DNA from: Candidatus Eiseniibacteriota bacterium
GTDB lineage: Bacteria > Eisenbacteria > RBG-16-71-46 > CAZAMP01
Direction of reading: 5' to 3'
DNA: 64,000 nucleotides
Assembly: GCA_965224245.1 (NCBI GenBank)
Contig: OZ245046.1
Location: forward strand, 2,084,148 to 2,148,147
Part shown: piece after piece, positions 46,195-64,000 of the stretch
How the letters are laid out: each line of letters begins with the position of its first letter
How positions within the stretch are numbered: position 1 is the first letter of the stretch
Notes under the pieces: model-generated
Told to the model about the DNA's origin: nothing
Databases searched by the model: none
The model's input: the letters and a program-made list of their open reading frames with translations, nothing else
Position numbers and translations under genes: made by a program

Positions 46195-46718
46195 ACGCCC
46201 GCCTCGGCCGGATCGAGAACGCCGATGTAGGGCAGCTCGCGGTGCCGCTCGGCGTAGTCCATGCCGTACCCGACCACGAACTTGTCGGGGATCGCGAAGC
46301 CCACGTAGTCCACCTTCACGTCCACCTCGCGCCGATCCACCTTGTCCAGGAGCGCGCAGGTCCTGAAGGACCGGGGGCGCCGGATCTGGAGGCTATCGCG
46401 CATGTAGGCCAGCGAGCGACCCGAGTCCACGATGTCCTCGACGAGCAAGAGATCGCGGCCGGAGACGTCGGTGTCCAGGTCCTTCAGCAGGCGCACGACG
46501 CCGCTGGAGGACGTGCCGTCCCCGTACGAGGACACGGACATGAAGTCGACCTCGTGCGGGATCGGCAGCCTGCGCATGAGGTCCGACATGAACATGAACG
46601 AGCCCTTGAGGACGCCGACCAGGATCAGGTCGGCGTCGGGACCGTAATCGCGCGTGATCTCCCCGGCGAGCTCGTCGACCCGCCGGTCGATCGCCTCGCG
46701 CGTGATGAGTATCTCCAC
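46191..46718 (-). CDS. hpt: hypoxanthine phosphoribosyltransferase
   Basis: GTG at 46716-46718 (GGGGGGAG upstream) gives 175 aa; PRPP motif 'LLLVEDIVDSGRS', 'YVGFAIPDKFVVGYGMDYAERHR'. Confidence 0.85.
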   Translation of the reverse strand: MEILITREAIDRRVDELAGEITRDYGPDADLILVGVLKGSFMFMSDLMRRLPIPHEVDFMSVSSYGDGTSSSGVVRLLKDLDTDVSGRDLLLVEDIVDSGRSLAYMRDSLQIRRPRSFRTCALLDKVDRREVDVKVDYVGFAIPDKFVVGYGMDYAERHRELPYIGVLDPAEAGV

Positions 46719-46851
46719 GGCTGAGCTCCCCCCTGCGCGCGCTTGCGGAATTGAGTCGGCGAGGGTAGCGTCCCGCTCGAGAGGGGTCAATCGGTCTCCC
46801 CGGCACACGCCGCAACGCGGTACGGCTCCGAACGCTCGCCCCGAGGTCGCC

Positions 46852-47949
46852 ATGGCAGACGACGCCACCACCCATCCTCCGATCACCCGCGAGCTGATCC
46901 TCGCGCTTCCCAAGACCGACCTCCACGTACACCTGGACGGATCCCTCCGGCCGGAGACCGTGCTGGAGCTGGTCGGGCAGTACGGGATCGAGCACCCGGC
47001 GAGGACTCCCGCCGAGATGCAGCGCGCGCTCAGCGTGGACGGGTCCCGATCCCTCGAGGAGTACCTCGAGGTCTTCGAGTTCACGCTGCGCCTGCTCCAG
47101 GAGCGCTCGTCCATCGAGCGAGTGGCCTACGAGCTGGCCGTCGACGCGGCCGCCGAGAACGTCCGGCACCTGGAGGTGCGATTCGCCCCGATTCTCCATC
47201 AGAGTCAGGGCCTCTCGCTGGACGAGATCCTGGACGCGGCCCTCGCCGGGCTCTCGCGGGCGAACTCCGAGACCGGCATCCGGACCGGCGTCATCGTGTG
47301 CGGCATCCGGCACATCCGCCCCGAGCGCTCGCTCGATCTGGCCGACCTGGCCGTGCGCTACAAGCACCGGGGCGTGGTCGCGTTCGATCTGGCCGGCGCC
47401 GAGCGGGACAACCCCGCCAAGCATCACCTGGAGGCGTTCTACCGGGTCCTCAATGCGAACCTCAGCTGCACCGTGCACGCCGGTGAGGCGTTCGGCCCGG
47501 CCTCCATCCACCAGGCCATTCACTACTGCGGCGCGCACCGGATCGGGCACGGCACACGGCTTCGGGAGGACCCCGAGCTCCTGGCCTACGTCAACGATCA
47601 CCGGATCCCGATCGAGATGTGCCTCACGTCCAACCTGCACACCGGCGCGATCTCGCGCCTCGAGGACCATCCGTTCCGCGACTACTTCGACCTGGGGCTC
47701 CGGGTCACGCTGAACACCGACAACCGGCTCATCTCGAACACGACGGTCACCGACGAGCTGGTCCTGGCCTGCGAGATGTTCCGGCTCACGCCCGGCGAGC
47801 TACGCTACGTGATCCTGAACGGATTCAAGAGCGCCTTCCTGCCCTTCGCCGAGAAGGTCGAGATGATGGCCCGCGTCGTGGAGGAGCTGGATTCGGTGCT
47901 CCAGGCGCATCATCCCGACAGCTCCCACCACGGCCGGTCGATCCTCTGA
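46852..47949 (+). CDS. add: adenosine deaminase
   Basis: Internal ATG at 46852; 'LPKTDLHVHLDGSLRPET', 'HAGE', 'HRIGHG', 'TLNTDN'; the listed ORF has a spurious 5' extension. Confidence 0.9.
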   Translation: MADDATTHPPITRELILALPKTDLHVHLDGSLRPETVLELVGQYGIEHPARTPAEMQRALSVDGSRSLEEYLEVFEFTLRLLQERSSIERVAYELAVDAAAENVRHLEVRFAPILHQSQGLSLDEILDAALAGLSRANSETGIRTGVIVCGIRHIRPERSLDLADLAVRYKHRGVVAFDLAGAERDNPAKHHLEAFYRVLNANLSCTVHAGEAFGPASIHQAIHYCGAHRIGHGTRLREDPELLAYVNDHRIPIEMCLTSNLHTGAISRLEDHPFRDYFDLGLRVTLNTDNRLISNTTVTDELVLACEMFRLTPGELRYVILNGFKSAFLPFAEKVEMMARVVEELDSVLQAHHPDSSHHGRSIL

Positions 47950-49510: not shown

Positions 49511-51289
49511 CTAGCGATACTGGCTCTTGATCTGGCCCCAGCTCTTGCGGTGGATCGGGGTCGGGCAGCTGACGCCGTCCTCGATGTCCGTCCGCCGCCG
49601 CGGCAGGACCTGGTAGCCCTCGTCGTACGGCGAGGAGCTGTCGAACTGGCCCGCGATCCCGGTGATCGTGAACGGCATGACCGGAATGGCCGAGCCGTCG
49701 ATGTCGGTGTCGCTGTCCACGCGCATCTCCGAGGGACCGGTACCGTCGTCGATCACGAGGTTGACGCTCACGCCGTCGGCCGGCCACTCGCCCGAGATGA
49801 TCTCGACGCCGCAGATCTTGATCAGGCAGTCGTCGTAGGCCTCGCCGTTGGAGGCGTACTCGCCGGTCGTGATCTCGATGGGCTCCGGCAGCGGCGCGGT
49901 GCCGGAGATCACGAGGCTCGTGATGCTGGTGATCTCGGTCTTGCCGTTGAAGAAGTCCAGCGTCCCGACGACCTCGGTGATGAAGTCACCCTCGGCGATC
50001 GGGTTGGCGAAGGTGTCGTAGCTGAAGTCGAAGAGCGTGATGCAGCAGCCGGTCGACGGCTGGTAGACCTGGATCTCCAGGCCGCCCACCCGGAACACGT
50101 CGGTGGCCACGGTGGCCACGACGTCCGTGATGCGCACGAGCTCGCCGAAGTGAACCGGGAAGCCGTTCGCGTCGTTCTCGTCCAGCTGACAGACGGTGTA
50201 GTCGGTCGGATCGGTGACCGGATCGCAGTCCGGATCGTTGAACGCGCCCGGCGTGGGCGTGATGTCGGCCACGAAGTCCTCGGCGTTGTCGTCGGTGTCC
50301 ACGCCGTCGGGGCAACGCGCGATCGACGTGCCACCCGGGACGTCCGGCGCCGCGGTCCCGCCCTCGCAGACCAGGTCCGGATCCTCGCCGTAGCACACGC
50401 TGTCGATGTTCTCGGCGGGGTCGGTGATGTCGTATGTGCCGTCGCCGTTGGCGTCGAAGGCCAGGACGACCTGGTCCGGTCCGTTCTGCCAGTCGGCGGT
50501 CGCGTCGATGAAGTCGGCCTCGGCCACCGTCGCGTCCTGGGCCACCACGAAGTAGCCGTCGCCCGGGATCGCGTTGCCGTCGAGCACGAGCGTCGCGTAC
50601 ACGACGCCGCCGTTGCCGTTCACGCCGATGAGCGCGTGACCGTCGAGGCTCTGGCCCGCGTTGCCGTAGAGCTCGGTGAACATACCCACGTCGGTGCCCG
50701 AGCCGTCGTAGAGCACCTCGTTGATCACGAGCGCGACGCCCGTGCCGCAGACGAGATCGTTCTCGGCGCCCGGCGTCGGCGTGTCGTCGGCCAGGAAGTC
50801 GACCTCGTTGTCGTCGGTGTCGGAGCCGTCCGGACAGCGGGCGAGCGAGACGCCGCCGAAGACGTCCTCGGCGAAGGTGCCGCCCTCGCAGACGAGGTCG
50901 GGATCGGAGCCGTAGCACACGCTGTCGATGATGTTCACTCCCTGCACCAGGCGGACCTGATCGGGGCCGTTCTGCCAGTCCGCGGTGCCGTCGACGAGGT
51001 CGGCCTCGGTCACGGTCGCGTCCTGACCGACGACGAAGTAGCCGTCGGCGGGAATCACGGATCCGGTCAGATCGATCGTCGCGTACACGACGCCGCCGTT
51101 GCCGTTGACGCCCTCGAGCGCGTACCCGTCGAGGCTCGTGCCGGGCTCGCCCTTGAGCTCGGTGAACATGCCCGCATCGGTGCCCGGGCCGTCGTACAGC
51201 AGCTCGTTGATGACGATCTGCGCTCCTGCCGTCCCGGCGAACCCGGTCAGCGCGAGAACGGACGCGATCGTCACTTGCAACCGCTTCAT
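49511..51289 (-). CDS. secreted protein with two tandem lamin-tail-like domains
   Basis: Internal ATG at 51287-51289 (AAGGAG upstream); signal peptide 'MKRLQVTIASVLALTGFAGTAGA'; two ~162-aa repeats each with 'INE(L/V)LYDG.GTD.GMFTEL', 'GVNGNGGVVYAT', 'GYFVV.QDATV', 'DSVCYG.DPDLVCEGGT', 'ARCPDG.DTDDN'. Confidence 0.75.
   Translation of the reverse strand: MKRLQVTIASVLALTGFAGTAGAQIVINELLYDGPGTDAGMFTELKGEPGTSLDGYALEGVNGNGGVVYATIDLTGSVIPADGYFVVGQDATVTEADLVDGTADWQNGPDQVRLVQGVNIIDSVCYGSDPDLVCEGGTFAEDVFGGVSLARCPDGSDTDDNEVDFLADDTPTPGAENDLVCGTGVALVINEVLYDGSGTDVGMFTELYGNAGQSLDGHALIGVNGNGGVVYATLVLDGNAIPGDGYFVVAQDATVAEADFIDATADWQNGPDQVVLAFDANGDGTYDITDPAENIDSVCYGEDPDLVCEGGTAAPDVPGGTSIARCPDGVDTDDNAEDFVADITPTPGAFNDPDCDPVTDPTDYTVCQLDENDANGFPVHFGELVRITDVVATVATDVFRVGGLEIQVYQPSTGCCITLFDFSYDTFANPIAEGDFITEVVGTLDFFNGKTEITSITSLVISGTAPLPEPIEITTGEYASNGEAYDDCLIKICGVEIISGEWPADGVSVNLVIDDGTGPSEMRVDSDTDIDGSAIPVMPFTITGIAGQFDSSSPYDEGYQVLPRRRTDIEDGVSCPTPIHRKSWGQIKSQYR
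50219..51220 (-). repeat. intragenic tandem duplication (2 x about 486 bp)
   Basis: DNA-level repeat, e.g. 'cgtcgcgtacacgacgccgccgttgccgtt' at 50591-50620 and again at 51077-51106; period 486 nt equals the 162-aa protein repeat. Confidence 0.65.
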
Positions 51290-51974: not shown

Positions 51975-52431
51975 CCGGCCGAGGCGGGTCGCCATCGGAG
52001 CCGACCATGCCGCCTATCGTTACAAGGTCTCGCTCATGGAGTGGATGAGAGAGGAGCTGGCGGGCGTGTCGGTCCTGGACTGCGGCACCCACTCCGAGGC
52101 CCCGGTCGACTACCCCGACATCGCGGCCGCGGTCGCGAACGCGGTCCGGACCGGCGAGGTGGACCGCGGCATCGTCATCGATCACGCCGGGATCGGATCC
52201 ACGATGGCCGCGAACAAGATCCGCGGGGTCCGGTGCGCGCTGTGCCACGACGAGGCGACCGTCCTCAACAGCCGCCGCCACAACGACGCGAACGTCCTGG
52301 CGCTGGGAAGCGCGGTCGTGAACGTCGGCTACGCGCGCACGCTCGTCCGCGTGTGGCTCGCCGCGCCGTTCGAGGGCGGACGGCACGCGCGGCGCGTGGA
52401 CAAGATCATGGCGCTCGAGGGCTCGTCGTGA
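51964..52431 (+). CDS. rpiB: ribose-5-phosphate isomerase B (RpiB/LacAB family)
   Basis: 'RVAIGADHAAY...VIDHAGIGSTMAANKIRGVRCAL...RRHNDANVLALG...EGGRHARRV' aligns with E. coli RpiB; GTG start. Confidence 0.85.
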   Translation: MSTDRPRRVAIGADHAAYRYKVSLMEWMREELAGVSVLDCGTHSEAPVDYPDIAAAVANAVRTGEVDRGIVIDHAGIGSTMAANKIRGVRCALCHDEATVLNSRRHNDANVLALGSAVVNVGYARTLVRVWLAAPFEGGRHARRVDKIMALEGSS

Positions 52432-53234
52432 TCGTCCCCGGCGGCAACGCCGTCCCGCCCGCGCTCCGCCGGGCCATCGAGGAGCGCGGCCCGAGCGCGA
52501 GTCCGGCGGCCGGGGGCCGTGCCCCGATCGCCTCGATCGCGTCGGTCGTCGACCACACGCTGCTCCGGGCCGACGCCTCGCAGACCCAGATCGAGACGCT
52601 CTGTGCCGAGGCGATCGAGTACGGCTTCGCGTCGGTGTGCGTGAATGCGATCTGGGTGCCGGTGGCCGCGCGCGCGCTCACCGGGTCGGACGTGAGCGTG
52701 TGCACGGTGGTCGGCTTTCCGCTGGGTGCCATGCGCTCGCCGATCAAGGCGCTCGAGGCCGAGACCGCCCGGGCACGCGGCGCGCGGGAGATCGACATGG
52801 TGGTGAACGTGGGCGAGCTGATCGGCGGCGGCGCCGACCGGGTCCGCGAGGACATCGCAACCGTCCGCCGCGTGCTGTCACCCGACGCCACGCTGAAAGT
52901 GATCCTGGAGACGGCGTTCCTCTCCGACGACCAGAAGCGACTGGGCGCCCGCGTGGCCGTCGAGGCCGGCGCGGACTTCGTGAAGACGTCCACCGGCTTC
53001 GGCCCCGGCGGAGCGACGGTGCCCGACGTGCGGCTGCTCGCCGAGACCGTGGGCGAGCGGTGCCGGGTCAAGGCCTCGGGCGGCATCCGGACGCTCGCCG
53101 CGGCGCGGGCCCTCGTCGAGGCGGGCGCGGCGCGCATCGGGGCCAGCGCCGGCGTGGCGATGGCGCGTGAGGAGCGCGGGCTCTCGACGACGACGACGAT
53201 CCCATCGGCCCCACCGCCTCACGGCGGCTACTGA
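52428..53234 (+). CDS. deoC: deoxyribose-phosphate aldolase
   Basis: GTG at 52428 overlapping the rpiB stop; 'VDHTLL', 'VVGFPLG', 'KVILET', Schiff-base lysine region 'AGADFVKTSTGF', 'KASGGIRT'. Confidence 0.85.
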   Translation: MIVPGGNAVPPALRRAIEERGPSASPAAGGRAPIASIASVVDHTLLRADASQTQIETLCAEAIEYGFASVCVNAIWVPVAARALTGSDVSVCTVVGFPLGAMRSPIKALEAETARARGAREIDMVVNVGELIGGGADRVREDIATVRRVLSPDATLKVILETAFLSDDQKRLGARVAVEAGADFVKTSTGFGPGGATVPDVRLLAETVGERCRVKASGGIRTLAAARALVEAGAARIGASAGVAMAREERGLSTTTTIPSAPPPHGGY

Positions 53235-53365
53235 GCCGGATCCGGCCTCGCTCCCGGCGGTCGCCGCGCCCGGGCCCACCCGGAAAAGGGTGGCGAACGC
53301 CCGAAGCGGAACACTAGACTCGCCCGCACGTGAACACCCGTCGACGACCCCAACGCTCCCGTGGG

Positions 53366-56269
53366 ATGCGCATGACGTTGCCGCTTCATCAGCGCCGCCG
53401 AGCCCTCCCGGGCCTCGTCGCGATCGTCCTGGTCACGCTGGCGACGCTCGTCGCGTCGACGACGACCGCCGGCCTCGCGCGCGCGGCGGACGCCCCCGCC
53501 GGTCAGACCGGCATCGTCCGGGGCACGGTCGTGGACGGCGACTCCCAGGAGCCCCTCCCCTTCGCCAGCATCATCGTCAAGGGGACCACGCGCGGCGCTC
53601 CGTCGCGCGACGACGGCTCGTTCGGCATTCGCGGCGTCGCCACCGGCAGCCAGGCGCTGCTGGTGACCTACGTCGGCTACTCGCCGATGGAGTTCCCCGT
53701 CCTCATCCATGCCGGCGAGGTGACCACGGTGCGCATCGAGCTGTCGCGGTCGGTCGGCTCGGTCGAGGAGGTCAAGGTCTTCGGAGACCGTCCCCTCGTG
53801 GACGTGCGCGAGACGTCCTCGTTGAAGACGCTCTCCACGCAGGACATCGACGACCTGACGATCGAGCCCACGCTGGAGTCGCTGCTGGGTCAGCAGGCCG
53901 GCGTGTCGGTCCAGGACGGTGAGATCCACATCCGGGGCGGACGATCCGACGAGACCGCGCTGATCGTGGACGGCGTGTCGCTGAAGGACGCCGTCTCGGG
54001 CGCGGCGGTGGCGGGCGCGCTCAGCGCCGGATCGGCGGCCGAGGTGTCGGTGGCCAAGGGCGGCTGGAGCTCCAAGCACGGTGACGCGATCAGCGGCGTC
54101 GTCGACGTGCGGGTGCGCGAGGGCACCGAGCAGTGGAAGGGCTCGGTCAGCTACACCACCGATGCGATGGTGGGCACGCAGTCGCTGCACTACGCCAATC
54201 TCCAGCTGAGCGGACCCAACGTGCTGTTGAAGCCGTTCTCGGCGCTGTTCGGCATCGACCGCTCGCAGCCGGCCACGTTCCACCTCGACCTGTCGACCGA
54301 GCTGTCGGACACGTACCTGCCCTCGGTCCGGGATCTCGGCCCGGGACGCCGGCGACTGAAGTCGTCGTACGTCAACACGCTCCTCGGGAAAGACCTCGAC
54401 TTCGGAGACTTCTTCACCCCGCGCGGCAGCAACGACTGGCGCTTGACCGCGAAGACGGGCTGGACGGTTCATCCCGCGCACAAGCTCACCGCCACGTACA
54501 TCAAGTCGCTCGGCTTCTCGAGCCAGTTCCAGGCGGTGGACATCGGGGAGGTGAACCAGAACATCACGCAGTACCCGTGGGCCTGGAGCCACCGCCTCGA
54601 CGACCACTACACGATCTCGACCGACTTCTACGCGCTGTCGCTGCAGTGGAAGCACTCGCTGGGCGACACGAAGTACCATCAGCTGCGCACCAAGTATCGC
54701 TTCTCGGCCACGCACCAGGACGTCCGCGGCCTGAACTGGGCCGACTACGAGGAGCCGTCGGACGAGATTCTCGACGACGATCACCCGTACTTCGTCGACT
54801 CCGGCACCGCGCCCCAGTACCACGACCGCTACTCCGAGCTGGCCGGCATCGACTGGGACTTCGTGTCCAACGGCGAGCACCACGACGTCGAGTTCGGGGT
54901 CAGTGCCGGCTACGAGGACGTGCAGTACTTCAGCCTCGACGCCTACAGCGTGACCCAGGACGCGCCCCTCGGTGACGAGTACGACCTCTTCCGCGTCTTC
55001 CCGGCCAAGGGCAGCTTCTACGTCGACGACAAGATCGAGTATCCCGGCATCGTCATGCGCGTGGGTGTGCGCGGCGACGTCTTCTTCCCGGGCGAACGCG
55101 TGGAGCGCCTGTTCGACGCGGCCGATCGACCGGGCTTCAACGAGGCCACGCGGGCGGAGTGGTACGACGCCACGAACGAGATCTTCGGGCGGCGCTACAA
55201 GATCCGCTTCAGTCCGAGCCTGGGGATCAGCCATCCGATCACCGATCGCAGCAACTTCTTCTTCAACTACGGTCGGTTCACGAAGTGGCCCACGTACTTC
55301 TACATGTACGCGGCCACGGGCGGCATCTCGTCGCCGGAGTTCGCCAACATCGGCAACCCCAACCTCGACCCACAGATCTCCGCGCAGTACGAGTTCGGTG
55401 TGGGGCACCGGCTCTCGGATCGGCTCTCGCTTCGCGCACAGGTCTTCTTCAAGGACATCTACGACTACCCGACGTCGGTGCCCGTGGAGCTCGGCACCCG
55501 CGAGACCCGGCGCCAGACGTTCTTCGTCTACCGCAACGCCGACTACGGGCGATCGCGTGGAATCGAGATCGAGGTGCAGCGCCGGCGCGAGCGCTACGCC
55601 TGGTACTCGGCCAGCTACTCGTTCTCGGTGGCCTCCGGCAAGTCGTCCGATCCTAATGCGCTCAACGTCGTGCAGTCGCTCGGTGGCGACGCGCGAGAGA
55701 CCGATCTCGAGGAGCAGTTCCTGTGGTGGCATCGCCCACACAAGCTGACGCTGTCGGGCGGCTATCAGGTCGACGCCGATCAGCGCGCCCCGAAGCTCTT
55801 CGGGTGGAGGCTTCCCAGGGAGTGGAAGCTGAGCTTCTTCTGGCTTCTCCAGTCCGGCGAGGCCTACACGCCGACCACCCCGCTGGGTACGCGCATCGAC
55901 AAGAGCTACTCGCGCAACGGCCCCATCGACAGCGTGTTCGATCTGAACGTGGTCAAGACGTTCCGGGTGGGCGATCGGCCCTTCCAGCTCACGTTCTCGG
56001 CCCGCAACCTTTTCAACCACCGGACGGTGCTCGAGATCGACTCGGCCACCGGAGACTCGCCGCGATCGGGGCTGGGCTCGAACTGGCGACCCGCCGAGAG
56101 CCCGCAGGAGCTCGTCGCCGTGGGCTACACGGTGCGTGAGACCGACACGCTGTACGAGGAGCTGGCCGGCTTGAACGACGCCATCGTGCGTTCGATGACC
56201 GGGCTGTTGAACCCCGCGTACATCGCCGCGCCGCGCAGCCTCCGGGTGGGCATCGGCTATGAGTGGTAG
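53366..56269 (+). CDS. TonB-dependent receptor, SusC-like (carboxypeptidase-regulatory-like domain, plug, beta-barrel)
   Basis: Signal peptide; 'GIVRGTVVDGDSQEPLPFASIIVKG...YVGYSP' CarboxypepD_reg-like; plug 'VEEVKVFGDRPLVD...IHIRGGRSDETALIVDGVSL'; barrel ending in an aromatic residue '...RVGIGYEW'; start could be 53330 (GTG), 53366 or 53372. Confidence 0.8.
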   Translation: MRMTLPLHQRRRALPGLVAIVLVTLATLVASTTTAGLARAADAPAGQTGIVRGTVVDGDSQEPLPFASIIVKGTTRGAPSRDDGSFGIRGVATGSQALLVTYVGYSPMEFPVLIHAGEVTTVRIELSRSVGSVEEVKVFGDRPLVDVRETSSLKTLSTQDIDDLTIEPTLESLLGQQAGVSVQDGEIHIRGGRSDETALIVDGVSLKDAVSGAAVAGALSAGSAAEVSVAKGGWSSKHGDAISGVVDVRVREGTEQWKGSVSYTTDAMVGTQSLHYANLQLSGPNVLLKPFSALFGIDRSQPATFHLDLSTELSDTYLPSVRDLGPGRRRLKSSYVNTLLGKDLDFGDFFTPRGSNDWRLTAKTGWTVHPAHKLTATYIKSLGFSSQFQAVDIGEVNQNITQYPWAWSHRLDDHYTISTDFYALSLQWKHSLGDTKYHQLRTKYRFSATHQDVRGLNWADYEEPSDEILDDDHPYFVDSGTAPQYHDRYSELAGIDWDFVSNGEHHDVEFGVSAGYEDVQYFSLDAYSVTQDAPLGDEYDLFRVFPAKGSFYVDDKIEYPGIVMRVGVRGDVFFPGERVERLFDAADRPGFNEATRAEWYDATNEIFGRRYKIRFSPSLGISHPITDRSNFFFNYGRFTKWPTYFYMYAATGGISSPEFANIGNPNLDPQISAQYEFGVGHRLSDRLSLRAQVFFKDIYDYPTSVPVELGTRETRRQTFFVYRNADYGRSRGIEIEVQRRRERYAWYSASYSFSVASGKSSDPNALNVVQSLGGDARETDLEEQFLWWHRPHKLTLSGGYQVDADQRAPKLFGWRLPREWKLSFFWLLQSGEAYTPTTPLGTRIDKSYSRNGPIDSVFDLNVVKTFRVGDRPFQLTFSARNLFNHRTVLEIDSATGDSPRSGLGSNWRPAESPQELVAVGYTVRETDTLYEELAGLNDAIVRSMTGLLNPAYIAAPRSLRVGIGYEW

Positions 56270-57284
56270 CGCGCACGCAGCCGCGGCGATCGGCGCTGCC
56301 CGCGCGGCCGCCGCCGCTCTCGCGGCGATGGCGGTCCTCTCGTGCCTGGCGGGCCCCGTCTCGGCCATCGGCGACCAGCGCTCGGGCACCAGCTCGGGCA
56401 CGTTCCTCAAGATCGCCGCCGATCCCCGGGGCGCCGCGATGGGCAACGCCGTGGTGGCCGACGCGCCCGGGATCACCGCGCTCGTCTGGAACCCGGCATC
56501 GCTGACCACGCTGGGCACGATGCAGCTCATGGCGTCGTACACGCGCTGGCCGGGCGAGATCGACTACTCGTACGCGGCGCTGGCCAGCTACGTCGGGCGC
56601 TTCTCCGGCACCGTGGGGCTCCAGATCGGCCACCTCGGCGTCGTCATGGAGGAGACGACCGAGGCCAATCCGACCGGGACCGGCGAGAACTTCGGCGTCC
56701 GGGACTGGTTTCTGGCGGGAACCTACGCGCGCCGGTTCACCGACCGGCTCTCGTTCGGCCTCACCGCCCGGTTGGTGCGCGAGGAGCTCGGCACCGAGAT
56801 CGGCGGTCCGTCCTCCACGAACGTGCTGTTCGACTTCGGGACGCTCTACTACATGGACTTCCTCGATCTGAAGCTGGCGTTCGCGCTCCAGCACTTCGGT
56901 CCCGAGTTTCAGCCCAGCGGTGAGTACGTCTCGGCCGCGACCGGCGCGGAGACGAGCTACGAGCCCTTCGCCCCTCCCACGACGTTCCGCCTCGGCGTTT
57001 CGGGTCCCATCCATCGCACCGAGCACACGCTGATCCGGGGCAACGTCGAGATGAACCACTTCTCGGACGCCGACGAGACGCTCCGCGTGGGCACCGAGTT
57101 CGGCTTCGACGACATGTTCTTCGTGCGCGCCGGATACGACATCGCCGCGGACGCGATGAAGTTCTCGGCTGGAGCGGGCTTCCACACGCGTTTCGGATTC
57201 AGCACCGGAGACGCGGACTACGCGTTCACCGATGCCGGCCCACTGGGAGTGGTACACCGCGTTGCGATTCGCATCGATCTGTAG
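56259..57284 (+). CDS. PorV/PorQ-like (FadL-fold) outer-membrane beta-barrel protein
   Basis: Signal peptide; N-terminal 'GTFLKIAADPRGAAMGNAVVADAPGITALVWNPASL' matches the FadL/PorV-family motif; amphipathic beta-strand pattern; start overlaps the last codons of the receptor gene. Confidence 0.5.
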   Translation: MSGSAHAAAAIGAARAAAAALAAMAVLSCLAGPVSAIGDQRSGTSSGTFLKIAADPRGAAMGNAVVADAPGITALVWNPASLTTLGTMQLMASYTRWPGEIDYSYAALASYVGRFSGTVGLQIGHLGVVMEETTEANPTGTGENFGVRDWFLAGTYARRFTDRLSFGLTARLVREELGTEIGGPSSTNVLFDFGTLYYMDFLDLKLAFALQHFGPEFQPSGEYVSAATGAETSYEPFAPPTTFRLGVSGPIHRTEHTLIRGNVEMNHFSDADETLRVGTEFGFDDMFFVRAGYDIAADAMKFSAGAGFHTRFGFSTGDADYAFTDAGPLGVVHRVAIRIDL

Positions 57285-57312
57285 ACCGGCGCACCCCGGC
57301 GCCCCTGGGCGC

Positions 57313-59274
57313 GTGGGCCGCGCCCGGAGGATCCTGGCGCTCTGGGGGACGGGTACGATCGTGATCGGTTGTGCCGAGAAGTTCGACCTGCCGCCGGTGC
57401 CCGAGCCGTTCATCCCGGTACCCGGTGCGTACAACTTCGACCACGAGTGGCGCGGCATGGGACGCGTCGTGGACATGGCGATGACGGGCGTGCAGCTGTA
57501 CGTGCTGACCGAGCGCGACGGCAGCCGCACCGTGGAGGGCTACCTGGCCACCGCGGCCGAGCCGGTCGAGCTCCCGGACTTCCTGATCGGCGACTACGCC
57601 GGCGCCCGGCGCCCGGTCGCGATTGCGCAGCAGGGCGATCACCTGTACGTGGCCGATGCACGCGGCCCCGACGCCTTGACCCTCGAACGCGAGTGCGGCG
57701 GCGACGACTGCGCGCTTCGGCTGACCGCGGGCGCCGGCGGCTCGATCCAGCACCTGGCCGGCCGCGACCTCGTCGAGCGCGTCCGACAGGACTTCCGGCT
57801 CGACATGCGCTTCCGCCTCGACGCGTTCCCCGACGGGTCGCGCGCGTGGATCACGCTGGGGACGGCACCCGGGCGGCCGGCGATCTGGCTCGAGGTGGGG
57901 CGCGATCGGTTCATCCGGCCCGTGCGCTCGGACGGCGCGTTCCCGGTGGACTCGCTGGCCTTCGGGCTCGGCGAATGGCACGACATCTCGATTCGTCACG
58001 ATTGGGCCGGAAGCACGTACGCGGTCACGATGGACGGCACGCGCTTCACGACCAACGTCCCCGTCTACTATCCGCTGGAGGACGACGCCATCGGCGCGCT
58101 GTCGATCCGGCTGACCGGCGACGGTGTCTCGGGCGCCGTGGACGACGTCGTGCTGTCGATCGACCAGAGGGCGCCGGGCGCGATCACCGATCTGACCGTC
58201 GAGCCGGTCAGCGCGGCGGCGGTGCGTCTGCGCTGGACGGCACCCGGCGACGACGGCGACACCGGCACCGTGGAGCGATACGAGATCCTGTGGGCTCGCC
58301 GCGAGGCGCTGCTCGAGGACGGCACTCCGGTACCGGGGCCCACCCCGCTGCCGGCGGGGAGCCTCCAGACGTTCGATCTCCTGGGCCTGGGAGGCGCCGA
58401 TTCGGTCTACGTGTACGTGACCGCATACGACGAGAGCGACAACGCGGGTCCCCCGTCGAACCTGGCGGTCACCGCCGTGACGTCGCCGCATCGCGTCCCG
58501 CGGGCTGCGCGAGCGGGACGGCCGGCCCGCACGCTTCCGGACACGCTCCTCGTCATCGACTTCGAGGACGTGTCGGAGCTGGACGCGTGGACTCTCGGTC
58601 CGTTCTTCACCAACGACCCGGCCCCGGCCGTCCTGCGCTACGATCTCCGCGAGGGCGGCGACCCGGAGCTCGCGATGACGAACCCCGACTGGTATCACGT
58701 GCACGGGATCGCGGTCTCCCCCACGCGCATCGTGTACGTGTCGGTGGAGACGCGCGACCCGGCCGATCCGTCCGGGGTGCTCCGGCTGGGCGAGATCCAG
58801 CGCTTCGACGCCGCGGGGCGCCCGCTCGAGCCCCTGGCCGAGAGCGGGAGCGGCGCCGGCTTCGTCTCCTCGCCGCGTGGCATCTACTTCGACAGCGAGA
58901 ACGTGCTCGTGGCCGACGCCGAGCTGAACCGCGTGCAGAAGCTGGACGCGTCCACCACCAACGAGGGTCTCGTGCAGATCCCTCCGCTCGACGTCAGCGA
59001 GGCCTGGTTCAGCGCGCCCACCGAGGTGGTCAGCGACGAGCGGCTGTTCATCTACGTCGCGGACACCGGCTCGGATCGCATCCTCCGCTTCGACCGCGAG
59101 GGTGCGTTCGCGGACACCGTGTACGCCCCGATGTACGAGCCGACCATCGGCGCCGGCGTCCTCGCGCGCCCCAGCGCGATCGAGGCCGACTCCGCCAGCG
59201 TGTGGGTGGCCGACCCGGCAAACGAGCGCATCGTCGTCCTGACGCGGGCGGGCACGATCTCGGGAGGTGGATGA
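57313..59274 (+). CDS. lipoprotein with fibronectin-III-like and NHL-repeat-like regions
   Basis: GTG at 57313 gives signal plus lipobox 'RILALWGTGTIVIGC'; 'VRLRWTAPGDDGDTGTVERYEIL' Fn3-like; repeated 'LY(V/I)AD...R(I/V)..LD' NHL-like blades; the ATG at 57232 is an alternative start. Confidence 0.6.
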   Translation: MGRARRILALWGTGTIVIGCAEKFDLPPVPEPFIPVPGAYNFDHEWRGMGRVVDMAMTGVQLYVLTERDGSRTVEGYLATAAEPVELPDFLIGDYAGARRPVAIAQQGDHLYVADARGPDALTLERECGGDDCALRLTAGAGGSIQHLAGRDLVERVRQDFRLDMRFRLDAFPDGSRAWITLGTAPGRPAIWLEVGRDRFIRPVRSDGAFPVDSLAFGLGEWHDISIRHDWAGSTYAVTMDGTRFTTNVPVYYPLEDDAIGALSIRLTGDGVSGAVDDVVLSIDQRAPGAITDLTVEPVSAAAVRLRWTAPGDDGDTGTVERYEILWARREALLEDGTPVPGPTPLPAGSLQTFDLLGLGGADSVYVYVTAYDESDNAGPPSNLAVTAVTSPHRVPRAARAGRPARTLPDTLLVIDFEDVSELDAWTLGPFFTNDPAPAVLRYDLREGGDPELAMTNPDWYHVHGIAVSPTRIVYVSVETRDPADPSGVLRLGEIQRFDAAGRPLEPLAESGSGAGFVSSPRGIYFDSENVLVADAELNRVQKLDASTTNEGLVQIPPLDVSEAWFSAPTEVVSDERLFIYVADTGSDRILRFDREGAFADTVYAPMYEPTIGAGVLARPSAIEADSASVWVADPANERIVVLTRAGTISGGG

Positions 59275-61307
59275 TGCGGCGGTGGTTCGAACGAGGGGTG
59301 TGTGCTCTCGGACGCGTGGCGATCGCCGCCGGGATGGGTGCGCTCGTCGCGGGCCCGCTCACCGAGGCGGCGGCCCAGATCACCGCGTTCGACGAACGCG
59401 TCACCACCGCCGGCAACATCGGCCTCACGGTCTCCAACTACGCCAGACAGGGGAACGACTTCCGCAACCGATCCTCGTCGTTCGAGTTTCCCGCCCGGAG
59501 CGGCGAGGAGCACATGACGCGGGGCGGAATCTGGATCGGCGGCATCGTCCTGAACGCCGCCGACGCGTCGCTGGACACCCTCGTGACCACGTCGGTCAGC
59601 GACGACTACGGCGGTGCCGAGCTGGGCTCGAGCGCCGAGTTCACGCCGGTGCGCGGCGCGGGCTGGCCTCCGGGCACGTCGATGCTCGAGCGATCCGCCC
59701 AGCCCTCGAGCGCGTTCTTCTCGCCGCAGGCCATCGCCGATCAGGAGTTCGTGGCCATCTGCGTGGACACCGTGCGCGTGGGGACCGGCGTGGATCGACA
59801 TCGCCCCCTGAACGTCAAGCTGCGCCAGGAGGCACTGGTCTGGGGCTTCAACCCGTACGACGGGATCGTGTTCATCAACTTCGAGCTGACGAACCTGAGC
59901 CGCACCCGCAACGTCTTCGACGTCTACGTGGGTCTCTACACCGAGCTGACCAGCGGCAACAAGGACGCCGCCGATCGGTGGCCGCCGCCGGGCGCGTGGT
60001 ACGGCACGAAGAACATCGCGTGGGTCGACTCGCTGCGCTATCTGGCCGAGCAGCGCGCGCCGGGGCTGTCGGGCGACCCGTACGAGGTGTCCTCCTGGTG
60101 CGGCGCTCAGATGCTGGGCATCTCCACGTCGATCCCGGGGGACGACTCCACGATCGACGACAAGACGACCACGTTCGTGTGGTGGGAGTGGCAGGACGAG
60201 ACCCCGGAGACCGATCGGGAGCGATACGAGGTCATGTCCTCGGGCGAGACCACGCCGACGCAGTTCGACGAGTTCAGCGATCTCGGCGCCGATCCGGTCT
60301 CCCTGACCTCGATCGGGCCGTTCTCCACGCTGTCCGCCAACGAGGCCGACACGGTGCGCTTCTCGATCGCGTACATCGGCGGGCTGGACGCCGAGGACCT
60401 CAACGACCGAGCGAAGATCGCGCTCGACGCGTACCGCCAGGGCTTCCGCATCCCGAAGCCGCCACCGGCCCCGGACTACCTCGTGGAGCCCGGACCGAAC
60501 GAGATCACGATCCGCTGGGACGACACGGCCGAGCGCACGCCCGACCCGCAGACGGGCCTGATCGACTTCGAGGGCTACCGGCTCTATCTGGGCCGATCGT
60601 CCGAGTCGACCGCGCTGGATCTCCTGAAGGAGGTCGACGTCGTGGACGACTACACGTACTCGCCCGACGCCACGCAGGAGGACATCCGCTTCAACACGGG
60701 GCTGGAGTCGGTCCTGTCCGACGATCCGATCATCGTCGTGGACGGCGAGGACACGCTGCGCTACGTGTACGAGTACGTGATCCGCGACCTCCGTGACGGG
60801 TTCAAGTACTGGACGTCGCTGACCGCGTTCGACAAGGGCACGCAGGAGATCGGTCCCCTGGAGAGCGGCCTGGCGCTGACCCAGCGCCTGTCGATACCGG
60901 GATCGAGCCCGGTGCCGGTCGACGACGGGTCGGGGCGCGTGTCGGTGTTTCCGAACCCGTACCGGGGATCGGCGGCCTGGGACGGCGAGCAGCTCCGCGA
61001 TCGCTATCTCTGGTTCCGCAATCTGCCCCAGCGGGCGCGCATCCGGATCTACACGCTGGGCGGGGATCTCGTGGATTCGTTCGACTTCGACGGCGACACC
61101 TACGACGCGCGGGACGTGCGCGGCATCTACGATCCGACCGACCCGCGGAACCCGGAGATCGATCTCCCCGTCATGTCCGGCGGCATGGCGGCCTGGGACC
61201 TGATCACGCGAGACGACCAGGCGATCGCCACCGGACTCTATCTGTTCAGCGTCGAGGACCTGGCGACCGGCCGCCGGGACCTCGGGAAGTTCCTGGTTCT
61301 GAAGTAG
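59271..61307 (+). CDS. secreted protein with C-terminal sorting-type domain (FlgD-Ig / T9SS-CTD-like)
   Basis: ATG overlapping the upstream stop; signal peptide 'ALGRVAIAAGMGALVAGPLTEAAAQ'; last ~110 aa 'VSVFPNPYRGS...RIRIYTLGGDLVDSFDFDG...AAWDLITRDDQAIATGLYLFSVED...GKFLVLK'. Confidence 0.6.
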   Translation: MMRRWFERGVCALGRVAIAAGMGALVAGPLTEAAAQITAFDERVTTAGNIGLTVSNYARQGNDFRNRSSSFEFPARSGEEHMTRGGIWIGGIVLNAADASLDTLVTTSVSDDYGGAELGSSAEFTPVRGAGWPPGTSMLERSAQPSSAFFSPQAIADQEFVAICVDTVRVGTGVDRHRPLNVKLRQEALVWGFNPYDGIVFINFELTNLSRTRNVFDVYVGLYTELTSGNKDAADRWPPPGAWYGTKNIAWVDSLRYLAEQRAPGLSGDPYEVSSWCGAQMLGISTSIPGDDSTIDDKTTTFVWWEWQDETPETDRERYEVMSSGETTPTQFDEFSDLGADPVSLTSIGPFSTLSANEADTVRFSIAYIGGLDAEDLNDRAKIALDAYRQGFRIPKPPPAPDYLVEPGPNEITIRWDDTAERTPDPQTGLIDFEGYRLYLGRSSESTALDLLKEVDVVDDYTYSPDATQEDIRFNTGLESVLSDDPIIVVDGEDTLRYVYEYVIRDLRDGFKYWTSLTAFDKGTQEIGPLESGLALTQRLSIPGSSPVPVDDGSGRVSVFPNPYRGSAAWDGEQLRDRYLWFRNLPQRARIRIYTLGGDLVDSFDFDGDTYDARDVRGIYDPTDPRNPEIDLPVMSGGMAAWDLITRDDQAIATGLYLFSVEDLATGRRDLGKFLVLK

Positions 61308-61318
61308 GGGTATCGCCG

Positions 61319-62839
61319 ATGGAGTCGAGTCGATCGATTGGAGCCATCGGGGCGCGCGCGGCTCTCGCGGCGGCCTCGGTGGTGCTGGTCGTGGCCGGCT
61401 GCGAGGCCCCCACCGGCTCCCGGGTCGGCAACCTGCCGCCCGAGACGTACCTGTTCATCAGTGACGCCGAGACCGACACCACGAGCTACGTCGTGGACCT
61501 CCACTGGTGGGGATCGGACCCCGACGGCGACGTGGTCGAGTATCAGTTCCGGATCGACAGCCTGTGGACTCCCGATCCGACCGATACGTTGACCGCCGAC
61601 GACCCGCCGTGGGTCCGCACGGTCCGCACCGAGCGGACGTTCACGCTGCCGGTCGAGGGCACCGGCCGGTCGGCGGTGGTGACGTTCCGCGCCGTCGACG
61701 ACGCGGGCGCGATCGACCCGATGCCGGTCACCCAGACCTTCCACCTCCGGAACCGAAAGCCGACGCTGGAGTTCGGCACAGACCTGGCTCGGCCCACCCG
61801 CTCGCTGCCCGCGGTCACGTTCTCGGTGGTCGCCGAGGACCCCGAGGGCGACGAGACGATCGTCGGCTACCGCGTGTGGTTCGACGGCGAGGACCGGGAG
61901 ACGGACGCGCGCACGATCCCCGGGCCCGCGGTGGCCCAGATCGCGCTCGGTCCCGACGACTTCCCGAGCGCCGGCGCGCTGACGATCAACATCGTGGCCG
62001 TCGACGACTCGAACACCGAGAGTGACCGGGTGCTCCGGCACACGTGGGACGTCATCGACACCGAGGCCAAGCGGGTCCTCATCGTCGATCAGTATCCCGC
62101 CGGTGGGCTGTTCGACGCGGACATCGCCGCGTTCTGGCGGAACGTCACCGAGGCGCGCCTGTCACCGGACGAGATCATCACGTTCGACTACACGGCCGAC
62201 GGCGGCTTTCGCACGACGGCCGAGGTGGAGCTGAGCTTCTCGGCATTCGAGGCGGTCATCTGGTACTCGGGGCTCCAGCCGAACAACCTGACCCAGACGC
62301 TCCGGCGCATCCAGGAGCTCAGGCGGGCCAGCCAGGCGATGGAGCGATACACCGCCGGCGGCGGGAACGTGCTCCTGTCGAGCACGTTCGCGTTCGGAAA
62401 TGCAGTGAACCCGACCGAGGGTGCGGCGTCGGCCGCCTGGGATTCCGCCGCCACGTATCGCCTCTTGCGGATCACGCGCGAGTTCACGAACCCTCAGGGC
62501 AACACGAACTTCCTGTTGTTCCCGACGATCACGTTCGGCTTTCCGGCCGAGTGGGCACTCCCGACCACGCATCCGCAGGGACTGCTGAACTACGTGGACT
62601 TCCTGGCCGTCCCGACCCGCATGACCCGGCTCATGTGGGTGCCTCCGGGGTCTCTCAACGTGGGCTTCGACGATGACGGCAACTTCGTCCAGAACGAGGT
62701 CGACTACGACTGCGCGTTCCGGATCGACACCGAGGGCGGCGGCGCGTTCGTCATCGCCACGCTGCCGCTGTCGCGGCTGAACCCGATCACCTCGGGCGAG
62801 ACGTTCGTGAACCGGGCGTTCGATGCGTTCGGGCTCTGA
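61319..62839 (+). CDS. hypothetical lipoprotein
   Basis: AGGGG 10 nt upstream; signal plus lipobox 'AALAAASVVLVVAGC'; 506 aa with no recognisable catalytic motif. Confidence 0.55.
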   Translation: MESSRSIGAIGARAALAAASVVLVVAGCEAPTGSRVGNLPPETYLFISDAETDTTSYVVDLHWWGSDPDGDVVEYQFRIDSLWTPDPTDTLTADDPPWVRTVRTERTFTLPVEGTGRSAVVTFRAVDDAGAIDPMPVTQTFHLRNRKPTLEFGTDLARPTRSLPAVTFSVVAEDPEGDETIVGYRVWFDGEDRETDARTIPGPAVAQIALGPDDFPSAGALTINIVAVDDSNTESDRVLRHTWDVIDTEAKRVLIVDQYPAGGLFDADIAAFWRNVTEARLSPDEIITFDYTADGGFRTTAEVELSFSAFEAVIWYSGLQPNNLTQTLRRIQELRRASQAMERYTAGGGNVLLSSTFAFGNAVNPTEGAASAAWDSAATYRLLRITREFTNPQGNTNFLLFPTITFGFPAEWALPTTHPQGLLNYVDFLAVPTRMTRLMWVPPGSLNVGFDDDGNFVQNEVDYDCAFRIDTEGGGAFVIATLPLSRLNPITSGETFVNRAFDAFGL

Positions 62840-63106
62840 GGTCCGAGGCCGCCCCGCGGCCCGGCCGGGATCCCGGTCGCGCTGACCGGACGGACACCCG
62901 CGTCGAGCCCCGCATCTGTTGTCGGCTCCGAGGGCCATGTGATAGACTCTGCGCGCTCGAAACAGACGAGACGCGCGCCGCACCGACAACGCAACTTCGC
63001 CATTTACAGCCACTTGCGGCCGTCATCCAGAAACGGAAACAAGGGCGACGGACGCCGCAGATCGCGTCGGCGGCCCCGGCACCGCATCCGATCGAAGGAG
63101 CCTCTC

Positions 63107-64000
63107 ATGCAGCGAGCCATCGGCTCTCTCGTGTGCGCCGGCGTGGCGTTGACCGCGATGGTCGCCCCCGCCGTCGCCGACCTGACCATCTACGACATCC
63201 AGGGATACGGAGCTGTGACGCCGGGCAATCCCGTGGACGTCGACGGCGTCGTCGTCACGGGCATCTACGCGTTCGGGTTCATGGCGCAGGAGCCCGACGA
63301 GGATGCCGGGTCGTCGATGTTCGGCCGCACGTACGGCGGGATCTGGGTGTACACCGGCGGCGCGCCGGACGTCGAGTTCGGCGATCTCGTGGACCTGGAA
63401 GGCGAGTACCAGGAGTTCTTCGACGAGTCCGAGATCGACGTGACGGTGGCCGGCAGCAGCGTGATGATCGTCGGAACCGCCCCGCAGCCGCCGTACCTTC
63501 CGGTCGTCATCACCGACATCAACGACGAGCTCGCCGGTGAGCCGTGGGAGGGCGTCCTGATCGAGACCACGCAGCCGAACATGGTCTCCACCGATACCCT
63601 CAACACCGGCTGCGGCAGCGCCTCCCCGACGCGCTGGGGCGTCTACCAGACCAGCGCGCCGACCGACTCGCTCTTCGTGCGAAACTCGGTCACCACGCAC
63701 GAGATCCCGATCCCCGGATCGCCGATCTCGTACCTCCGTGGCCCGATGAGCTTCCACCGGTGCCTCCGGAAGGTCATTCCCCGGGACAACGACGACATCG
63801 GCTACATCGCCGCGCCCAACATCGTCTGGGCGTACTCGACCGGCAACACGTCGTGCGACATCGTGTTCAGCCGCGACGTCACCCAGGCCAGCGCCGAGGA
63901 TGTGCTCAACTACTTCTTCGCCTCCGGGGTCGCGGTTCTCGCCGCCGAGCGCGACGCGAGCGACTTCAGCGTCGTCCACCTGACGACGTCGACACAGTTC
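63107..64000 (+). CDS. hypothetical secreted protein, 3'-truncated by the window edge
   Basis: Not in the ORF track because it has no stop; ATG at 63107 with AAGGAG 7 nt upstream; 298 codons open to the window end; signal peptide 'MQRAIGSLVCAGVALTAMVAPAVA'; high GC3. Confidence 0.55.
   Translation, partial: MQRAIGSLVCAGVALTAMVAPAVADLTIYDIQGYGAVTPGNPVDVDGVVVTGIYAFGFMAQEPDEDAGSSMFGRTYGGIWVYTGGAPDVEFGDLVDLEGEYQEFFDESEIDVTVAGSSVMIVGTAPQPPYLPVVITDINDELAGEPWEGVLIETTQPNMVSTDTLNTGCGSASPTRWGVYQTSAPTDSLFVRNSVTTHEIPIPGSPISYLRGPMSFHRCLRKVIPRDNDDIGYIAAPNIVWAYSTGNTSCDIVFSRDVTQASAEDVLNYFFASGVAVLAAERDASDFSVVHLTTSTQF

Follow-up and report, generated by a model that had tools for sequence, protein, structure and literature searches.

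The gene that begins at position 63107, on the forward strand, of a 64,000-nucleotide stretch of Candidatus Eiseniibacteriota DNA (contig OZ245046.1; the whole stretch is called the window below) encodes a secreted protein that we read, with a probability of roughly 55%, as a non-catalytic, surface-anchored ligand-capture protein of a conserved uptake cluster, for which nucleic acid would be the likeliest ligand. The part of the gene that lies inside the window covers a signal peptide, a first module of two predicted OB barrels (module 1) and the start of an immunoglobulin (Ig)-like domain; the remainder of the architecture was read from orthologs. Three sets of observations bear on this reading: the relation of module 1 to the region that opens extracellular nucleases of the ExeM/NucH type, the continuation of the orthologs into a second such module and a sorting domain of the type IX secretion system (T9SS), and the place of the gene behind a string of genes headed by a TonB-dependent receptor. 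Loci and proteins fetched for comparison are designated by L and P numbers, respectively.

A secreted protein gene at the end of the window

From the ATG at 63107 to the last position of the window, 64000, the plus strand translates into 298 sense codons with zero stops. The first-pass annotation of this DNA had pointed out this open reading frame (ORF) as one that an ORF list omits for want of a stop inside the window, and the frame does run off the window end. The 298 open codons, the peptide strings quoted from them, the AAGGAG ahead of the ATG and the high G+C content at third codon positions (GC3) that it described were all found again. The ribosome-binding site AAGGAG lies at 63095-63100, with a 6-nt spacer before the ATG that the annotation, counting differently, had given as 7 nt; the G+C content by codon position is 0.61/0.47/0.93 (GC3 0.93), the same coding signature as in all neighbouring genes. 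Over the 267-nt gap upstream, in contrast, the corresponding values are flat (0.65/0.67/0.75). Since stops are rare in a window of 69% G+C, where stop trinucleotides lie on average ~74 codons apart, the open frame counts for little when taken alone; the question is settled by homologs, as proteins 53-61% identical to the ORF are encoded in syntenic loci elsewhere. We regard it as practically certain that the gene is real and that its product is secreted and, judging from the lengths of its relatives, the visible part would be the 5' 46% of a gene encoding a protein of ~630-650 aa.

The signal peptide proposed in the same annotation was also recovered. In a heuristic reading, residues 1-24 comprise R3, a hydrophobic core at residues 4-21 (Kyte-Doolittle values up to 2.4) and an AVA-D cleavage site after A24, and the orthologs have equivalent N-terminal signal regions. 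No lipobox was found in the N-terminus of the ORF.

Other ways of reading this segment were considered and rejected. An antisense ORF at 63023-63979 has codon-position G+C values of 0.92/0.49/0.61, those of a mirror-image shadow frame. The in-frame starts GTG 62939 and TTG 63014 lack a ribosome-binding site, and both fall inside the gap of non-coding appearance. The ORF is in frame with the lipoprotein gene upstream, and between the TGA stop of that gene (62837-62839) and the ATG at 63107 the frame has no further stop; the flat codon-position G+C of the gap and the N-termini of the orthologs nevertheless speak against read-through, or a longer protein, across 62837-63109.

The visible module is related to the front of extracellular nucleases

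Pfam gave no match to the 298 residues, even at E 10, and the sole NCBIfam match was the ExeM/NucH family NF033681 (E 1.9e-8; 33.6 bits against a cutoff of 300), which pairs ORF residues 47-162 with profile positions 3-116 of 546. A PDB search with the single 298-aa sequence returned only a chance match to malate dehydrogenase (E 0.42), and a profile built from the orthologs matched 9sf8/9sf9, a solved protein with an EEP (Exo_endo_phos) domain, at E 1e-6 over residues 19-161, at the N-terminus only. A genuine nuclease of this type was recovered in L008, from Salisediminibacterium halotolerans, the only non-Eisenbacteria locus among those recovered: its 1225-aa protein matches NF033681 positions 2-545 and carries Pfam EEP domains. 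Residues 19-104 of the ORF align with the start of the nuclease unit of this protein at 35% identity, and the motif that ends the module, KVIPRDNDDI in the ORF and KLMPRDNADL in the L008 nuclease, is common to DUF5689-type relatives too. By sequence, then, homology to the opening OB region of the ExeM/NucH nucleases extends over residues ~40-160, which bears out the resemblance noted in the first-pass annotation between this N-terminal region and the OB-like modules at the front of extracellular nucleases.

An AF2 model built from 50 sequences agrees with this assignment. Its pLDDT is 76 overall and 81-97 over residues 21-160, and it shows two barrels followed by the start of a beta-sandwich. 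The first is a five-stranded OB barrel (strands 42-54, 57-61, 78-82, 93-104 and 107-111; pLDDT up to 97); the second is formed by strands within 151-233, with pLDDT 89-91 at 211-230 and 62-78 at 161-210. Foldseek against the PDB returned OB folds only, at E 1e-4 to 1e-2. Tandem-OB proteins ranked first: two structures of dsDNA-binding HIN-200 domains, 5z7d (p204 HINab-dsDNA) and 2oq0 (IFI16 HINa), had E-values of 1.6e-4 to 5e-4, and Teb1 AB came next, followed by RPA, CST and the anticodon-binding domains of aminoacyl-tRNA synthetases. Foldseek probabilities were 0.97-1.0 to RPA, Stn1, the N-domains of AspRS and LysRS, and YgiW, and TM-scores were low, at 0.2-0.3 normalised by query length. 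The visible part is thus predicted to adopt a tandem-OB, HIN-200-like fold. Each module of the family corresponds to the unit of two barrels that stands ahead of the catalytic domain in ExeM, NucH and Xds and that composes DUF5689 proteins such as DdbD.

Orthologs carry a second module and a sorting domain

Orthologs were found in seven syntenic or partial loci, five of them complete or reconstructable and two cut by contig ends. Their identity to the window ORF is 61% in L009, 47% in L003, 37% in L004 and ~30% in L006 and L007; in all five of these, which are complete or C-terminally complete, the order is signal peptide, OB-OB, Ig-like, OB-OB, C-terminal domain (CTD). The closest database proteins, P0001 and P0002, are 54-55% identical to the ORF and end in frameshift junk. 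Frameshifts in low-coverage assemblies split their genes (L001 at ~4250-4350, L002 at ~1900-1972), so that public sets hold junk-tailed truncated versions together with a separate 'FlgD_ig' fragment; across the frameshift in L001, the other phase runs on through a second module and reaches a PNPFNP...TLLK tail.

Searches by word index recovered too little of the family, with 3 and then 49 matches, all of at most 531 aa, and 55% as the highest identity to the ORF. An exhaustive profile search over 1.84 billion representatives gave 2320 proteins at E <=1e-3, of which 78 reached E <=1e-30; ~35 of the best 150 matches are 607-680 aa long and match from residue 1. All of the 32 full-length representatives examined (607-680 aa) match the OB part of NF033681, 30 match TIGR04183, the T9SS type A sorting domain, and 28 match FlgD_ig; two give weak matches to Pfam tRNA_anti-codon (best E 1.9e-6). 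The EEP domain was found in none of the 32, and it is absent from the complete syntenic orthologs too. These complete orthologs score 51-60 bits against NF033681, over the OB part only, and 28-34 bits against TIGR04183 (cutoff 23), and a CTD profile made for the family matches every ortholog at E 1e-19 to 1e-33. The best full-length representative, P0051 (645 aa), shares 53% identity with the window ORF, with which it is colinear over residues 1-297.

The first-pass annotation had placed the catalytic part, 'if any', beyond the window. A genuine ExeM/NucH-type extracellular nuclease, with its EEP domain just past the window end, is indeed what one might expect from module 1, homologous as it is to the front end of true nucleases, and the JGI name of some relatives (P0005, P0033 and P0037) is 'predicted extracellular nuclease'. 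We consider this exceedingly improbable. Where the window ends, the orthologs and the 32 full-length representatives continue with the Ig-like domain, the second OB-OB module and the T9SS CTD, and the EEP domain occurs in the ortholog of none of the seven loci; the hedge in the annotation was the right part of its claim. The domain scan that it suggested, for EEP and OB-fold domains, gave no Pfam match in the 298 aa and no EEP domain in the orthologs, and it did bring out the OB part, through NF033681. For the L004 ortholog, the C-terminal 464 aa were modelled as all-beta, and the confident part of the model, module 2, matched OB folds only, CcmE and OBody among them. No EEP-like ORF was seen elsewhere in the window, and none of 50 aligned relatives, the JGI-named ones included, has an EEP match in Pfam. 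OB-only proteins of this kind are likely to be systematically over-annotated as nucleases.

Since the 607-680 aa of the orthologs are fully filled by OB, Ig and CTD segments, they leave neither room nor signal for a catalytic domain, and we hold with considerable confidence that the architecture is a non-catalytic double tandem-OB one that ends in a T9SS CTD. The window protein is not a member of ExeM/NucH, as score and catalytic domain both fail; by orthology, it would be a T9SS type A cargo. The family to which it belongs comprises dozens of 50%-identity clusters, has no name in Pfam or NCBIfam, and has relatives assigned to Candidatus Eisenbacteria/Eiseniibacteriota.

Some features of the wider family were observed along the way. 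The Ig-like segment (profile positions ~232-330), undetected by Pfam in the window ORF, recurs in giant proteins (P0050, of 5729 aa, P0053-P0055, P0060 and others) in as many as 56 copies, and this linker domain is a widespread surface-protein repeat. Distant relatives include two-module lipoproteins of ~500 aa (L010 4263-5732, L013 6001-7527 and L014 698-2224); such proteins are encoded immediately 3' of the rpoA-rplQ ribosomal operon in different metagenomes, a conserved position, two of those compared having it.

The gene follows a conserved TonB receptor string

Upstream of the OB gene, gene calling by GC3 phasing gave five tightly packed genes on the plus strand (Table 1). They encode, in order, a TonB-dependent receptor, an outer-membrane barrel of the PorV/PorQ family, an NHL-repeat/fn3 protein, an exported protein of 678 aa and a lipoprotein of 506 aa. 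By tblastn, the six genes formed by this string and the OB gene are collinear in L003, at 43-59% identity, and in L006 and L007, at 27-39%; L004 has five of the six, without a match to the NHL gene, and L001 has the last three. Homologs of the 506-aa lipoprotein are encoded directly 5' of the OB gene in L001, L003, L004, L006 and L007. Neither the 678-aa nor the 506-aa protein is matched in Pfam, NCBIfam or the PDB, and either could be a new surface enzyme or binding protein. By eye, the 678-aa protein seemed to end in a T9SS-like tail; in its group, the family CTD profile matches the L006 homolog only (E 3.8e-4), and the window copy gives no match.

Such conservation of the position of the OB gene is hard to explain without selection on linkage. 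It bears directly on the idea that the protein is a structural component of the surface or matrix, an adhesin or a surface-layer component in which OB and Ig domains serve as scaffold, and that the gene order is merely co-inherited. The gene has a candidate promoter of its own and a 267-nt gap before it, its Ig-like segment is the repeat unit of giant surface proteins, and its distant relatives stand in unrelated contexts, all of which would suit such a role; yet the gene directly follows the same lipoprotein gene in five loci and the whole receptor string in four, down to ~30% identity. We therefore rate a structural role as unlikely and think it probable, on balance, that the OB protein works with the conserved TonB-receptor locus.

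The receptor gene has conserved neighbours on its other side as well. In four of the four loci in which the region is visible, a gene for a nucleoside-catabolic enzyme on the same strand, deoC or that for adenosine deaminase (add), adjoins the receptor gene despite rearrangements. In the window and in L003 (68% identity; L003 5-355), the gene directly 5' of the receptor gene is deoC, and in L006 (2-817) and L007 (5-454) it is add; the window copy of add lies 5 kb further up. Between add and deoC in the window, on the opposite strand, stands a gene for an LTD-LTD-tandem-OB protein, the C-terminal 229 aa of which match the family alignment with an hhalign probability of 96.2% (E 2.1e-9). This LTD-LTD-OB-OB protein has the complete non-catalytic front of an ExeM/Xds-type nuclease, with the EEP domain missing. 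Its OB module is visible by profile-profile comparison only, and a BLAST and hidden Markov model search of the window for paralogs found none; the protein has no PDB sequence match and no homolog in the fetched loci. On the 3' side, an S8 peptidase with the same T9SS sorting domain is encoded immediately after the OB gene in L001 and L003. Core components of the T9SS itself (SprA/Sov, PorU, GldK-N) were not found among the window genes scanned.

One of these loci, L007 (DATJGS010000012.1), is labelled Candidatus Saccharimonadaceae and nonetheless carries the Eisenbacteria-type string of TonB receptor and PorV-family genes. Outer-membrane genes are unexpected in Saccharibacteria, and the contig is therefore probably mis-binned.

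Comparison with known systems

The closest functional analogue of the window protein is DdbD, a DUF5689 protein of the DNA-utilization locus ddbABCDEF of B. thetaiotaomicron that is predicted to bind the substrate as partner of DdbC, a TonB-dependent transporter; a model of DdbD resembles the HIN domain of p202 (PMC12478041). Both are non-catalytic extracellular proteins made of the same tandem-OB unit, with a HIN-200-like predicted fold, and both belong to a locus that is headed by a TonB-dependent receptor with a CarboxypepD_reg domain and linked to nucleoside or nucleobase metabolism. The differences are several. The window protein comes from Eisenbacteria and DdbD from Bacteroidota; the window family has a Sec signal and a T9SS CTD, whereas DdbD is treated as a surface lipoprotein; and its module is duplicated around an Ig-like domain. 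The window gene stands four genes 3' of the receptor gene, whereas ddbD is adjacent to ddbC, and a PorV-family gene follows the receptor gene in the window locus. Finally, the ddb locus has three nucleases and the window locus none that we recognised.

The sequence link between the family and DUF5689 appears to be remote but real. The L004 ortholog matches DUF5689 at E 0.099 and 4 of the 32 full-length members do so at E <=1e-3 (best 2.3e-4), while one relative, P0007, matches the family profile at E 4.7e-28 and DUF5689 at 34.7 bits, above its gathering score. Because the homology is remote and transitive, passing through intermediates such as P0007, the window ORF is not counted as a DUF5689 member.

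With the nucleases ExeM, NucH and Xds (Shewanella ExeM, Vibrio Xds, 9sf8/9sf9), the window protein shares the homologous N-terminal OB region and the property of being secreted. Deletion of the two-OB, YhcR-like region of ExeM abolishes activity, and the region is thought to hold the substrate (PMC6085458); in Xds, an OB fold lies between the LTD and EEP domains (PMC6746945). These nucleases have features of their own (LTD, EEP, and a GlyGly-CTERM or cell-wall anchor), whereas the window orthologs lack EEP and have two modules, an Ig-like domain and a T9SS CTD. The likeness to HIN-200 proteins (IFI16, p202, p204), Teb1 AB, RPA and Thermus SSB consists in two consecutive OB barrels, and these are the best structural matches of both modules. 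At 10-15% identity there is no detectable sequence similarity, the TM-scores are low, and the DNA-binding surfaces of these proteins are basic, whereas the window protein is strongly acidic; on the models, the resemblance to HIN-200 would be a structural analogy or a very remote homology only.

The T9SS has been characterised in Bacteroidota, and a literature search on Eisenbacteria and T9SS found nothing. The family resembles T9SS type A cargo (TIGR04183/PF18962) in that its orthologs have the sorting domain above cutoff and that a gene of the PorV/PorQ family, outer-membrane partners of that system, stands in the same conserved string. It differs in that the sorting domain of the window protein itself lies beyond the window and is assigned by orthology.

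Proposed role of the protein

We propose that the OB protein would be exported by Sec and then passed through the T9SS by means of its C-terminal domain, to be held at the cell surface, possibly by the PorV-family barrel of the string itself. There, its four OB barrels would capture a polymer, and the polymer or its breakdown products would be handed to the TonB-dependent receptor. If the ligand is extracellular nucleic acid, its deoxynucleoside products could feed the adjacent deoC and adenosine deaminase. Nucleic acid is put forward as the likeliest ligand because every characterised context of the module (ExeM, Xds, YhcR, DdbD, Riemerella competence) is nucleic-acid related; taken by itself, this identification of the ligand is tentative, and we put it somewhat short of even odds.

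Several observations weigh against this proposal. The mature protein has an isoelectric point of 4.05, with 1 K/R against 25 D/E in its first 136 residues, and the nearly invariant columns of the family include one basic residue only, the R of the PR..D motif; this composition, together with the single conserved basic residue, offers no obvious surface for binding a DNA backbone. The OB regions of the L008 nuclease and of the DUF5689 relative P0007 are, however, equally acidic, which leaves room for cation-bridged DNA binding. In the whole of the conserved locus, no nuclease or phosphodiesterase was recognised. Four genes separate the OB gene from the receptor gene, and it lies behind a 267-nt gap and a candidate promoter of its own, unlike the adjacent ddbC and ddbD, and the three distant lipoprotein relatives have no TonB receptor nearby, so that the receptor link is not superfamily-wide. 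Against Pfam DUF5689 (PF18942; gathering score 28.6 bits) the window ORF gives no match, even at E 10, and DNA binding by DdbD and by the OB region of ExeM has itself been inferred and not measured (PMC12478041, PMC6085458). The Foldseek matches are biased, because most OB folds in the PDB belong to proteins that bind nucleic acids. Lastly, the 3' half of the gene is outside the window, and scans of genome and metagenome contigs gave relatives of the protein and not the source contig; the C-terminal sorting domain of the protein is assigned from orthologs.

The acidity and the lack of a conserved basic patch would be accounted for if the protein captured something else: a protein or peptide, or a glycan compatible with an acidic protein, at the surface of the same TonB locus, the nucleoside genes then being an unrelated operon. 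The S8 peptidase with its T9SS CTD immediately 3' of the OB gene in L001 and L003 suggests protein substrates, and this tells against nucleic acid as the ligand. It is also in keeping with another ligand that no nuclease was found in the locus, that OB folds bind sugars and proteins as well (as the CcmE and OBody matches illustrate), and that the L008 nuclease pairs the module with carbohydrate-binding domains. Such a ligand is less easily reconciled with the nucleic-acid setting of all characterised contexts of the module, with an adjacency of deoC or add that outlives rearrangement in loci of just 27-39% protein identity, and with the presence of a second ExeM-front-like protein among the nucleoside genes. 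We regard it as a possibility to be taken seriously, if not a probable one.

A further alternative keeps DNA as the ligand and changes its purpose: the protein may be a DNA receptor for natural transformation, not for nutrition. This has been proposed for the Riemerella anatipestifer DdbD homolog RA0C_RS04920, a DUF5689 protein that is needed for natural transformation and is paired with a CarboxypepD_reg outer-membrane protein, the pair being essential for the process (PMC8459023). The window receptor also opens with a CarboxypepD_reg domain, and a locus with no recognised nuclease fits the uptake of intact DNA. However, comEC, dprA and comF were not seen among the window genes scanned, the conserved neighbours deoC and add are catabolic, and the homology to DUF5689 is remote, and we think a function in transformation very unlikely.

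The proposal of a surface capture protein can be taken further. The family might be the surface DNA receptor of a hitherto unrecognised TonB-dependent system for scavenging DNA or deoxynucleosides outside Bacteroidota, an Eisenbacteria counterpart of ddb. The binding protein would then be a T9SS cargo in place of a lipoprotein, kept at the outer membrane by the PorV-family barrel through a CTD that is retained, as PorV and PorQ anchor PorU and PorZ in Porphyromonas, and the 678-aa and 506-aa proteins would include a new nuclease or phosphodiesterase. In this full form, the scheme is doubtful.

Upstream region and other features of the window

The 267-nt gap before the OB gene contains a TTGTCG hexamer followed by an extended -10-like element, TGTGATAGACT (Table 1). 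The 11-mer TGTG(A/C)TAGACT occurs a single time in the whole window, both strands considered, and recurs 5' of the two closest orthologs, exactly in L001 (at 2810) and in L002 with 2 mismatches and the same TTGTCG (at 509); it was not found upstream of the orthologs in L003, L004, L006 and L007. A sigma-70 consensus scan of the gap returned no promoter, the TGTGATAGACT element being under the scan threshold. Together, TTGTCG and TGTGATAGACT may form an extended -10 promoter of the Eisenbacteria phylum, which would give the gene a 5' untranslated region of ~160 nt. A terminator scan of the gap gave two terminator-like hairpins on the minus strand, which are not meaningful for a plus-strand gene, and Rfam, run on 62500-64000, gave just one sub-threshold chance match to a snoRNA.

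Some gene limits in the window had to be revised. The ORF at 57369-61307 (1312 aa) was rejected as a single gene, since GC3 marks it as coding in its 3' half only; the real gene starts at 59271. The 397-aa deoC ORF (52041-53234) is over-extended by ~165 codons; the GC3 frame switch puts the true start probably at ~52430-52540, and a separate gene of 173 aa lies at 51913-52431. The rest of the window is occupied by housekeeping genes (FtsK, MetK, sigma-54, RNase E/G, PBP2, MreB).

Table 1. Positions in the window of the OB gene, its parts and the genes discussed with it
Feature	Positions	Strand	Basis and remarks
OB gene, 5' part, 298 codons	63107..64000	+	Open frame, GC3, homology; expected full length ~630-650 aa
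Sec signal peptide (signal peptidase I type), residues 1-24	63107..63178	+	Hydrophobicity, A-x-A site, orthologs
First OB barrel of module 1, ~residues 25-125, YhcR/ExeM-front-like	63179..63481	+	NF033681, 9sf8, AF2, Foldseek; approximate boundaries
Linker and predicted second OB barrel of module 1, ~residues 126-235	63482..63811	+	AF2 strands 151-233, tandem-OB Foldseek matches
Start of Ig-like beta-sandwich linker domain (predicted), residues 236-298	63812..64000	+	Low-confidence AF2 beta strands; cut by window end
Candidate promoter: TTGTCG (62919-62924), 18-nt spacer, extended -10-like TGTGATAGACT (62938-62948)	62919..62948	+	169 nt before the ATG
506-aa lipoprotein, unknown family, lipobox VVAGC	61319..62839	+	Immediately 5' of the OB gene; translation
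Exported 678-aa protein, unknown family	59271..61307	+	GC3 frame analysis; homologs in five loci
NHL-repeat/fn3 protein	57232..59274	+	Pfam; collinear homologs in L003, L006, L007
PorV/PorQ-family outer-membrane barrel	56259..57284	+	NF033709, 167 bits vs cutoff 90; collinear in four loci
TonB-dependent receptor, CarboxypepD_reg N-terminal and Plug domains	53330..56269	+	Pfam, NCBIfam; collinear in L003, L004, L006, L007
deoC (deoxyribose-phosphate aldolase)	52536..53234	+	TIGR00126, 246 bits vs cutoff 117 (equivalog); directly 5' of the receptor gene
LTD-LTD-tandem-OB protein with signal peptide	49511..51289	-	Pfam LTD in 2 stretches; hhalign; no catalytic domain
Adenosine deaminase (add)	46654..47949	+	Pfam, E 1e-95

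Implications

Taken on its own, the gene encodes an ordinary uncharacterised secreted protein. The family shows that the OB module of ExeM/NucH is often used without a catalytic domain, and OB-only relatives, which are easily labelled 'extracellular nuclease', may inflate the counts of secreted nucleases in metagenome surveys. The sole functional precedent for non-catalytic tandem-OB proteins is the DdbC-DdbD system of DNA utilization and transformation in Bacteroidota. DNA capture of the ddb kind outside that phylum, by receptors anchored through the T9SS, is something we infer here and would be notable if true. The presence of a PorV-family gene inside an operon of cargo and receptor hints that T9SS cargo may be anchored by dedicated means beside the transporter, and the locus would offer concrete, testable genes in an uncultured phylum of soil and sediment. 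With its TonB receptor, PorV-family barrel, T9SS-sorted tandem-OB proteins and deoC or add, this Eisenbacteria locus suggests that outer-membrane capture of DNA may occur more widely and take more varied architectural forms.

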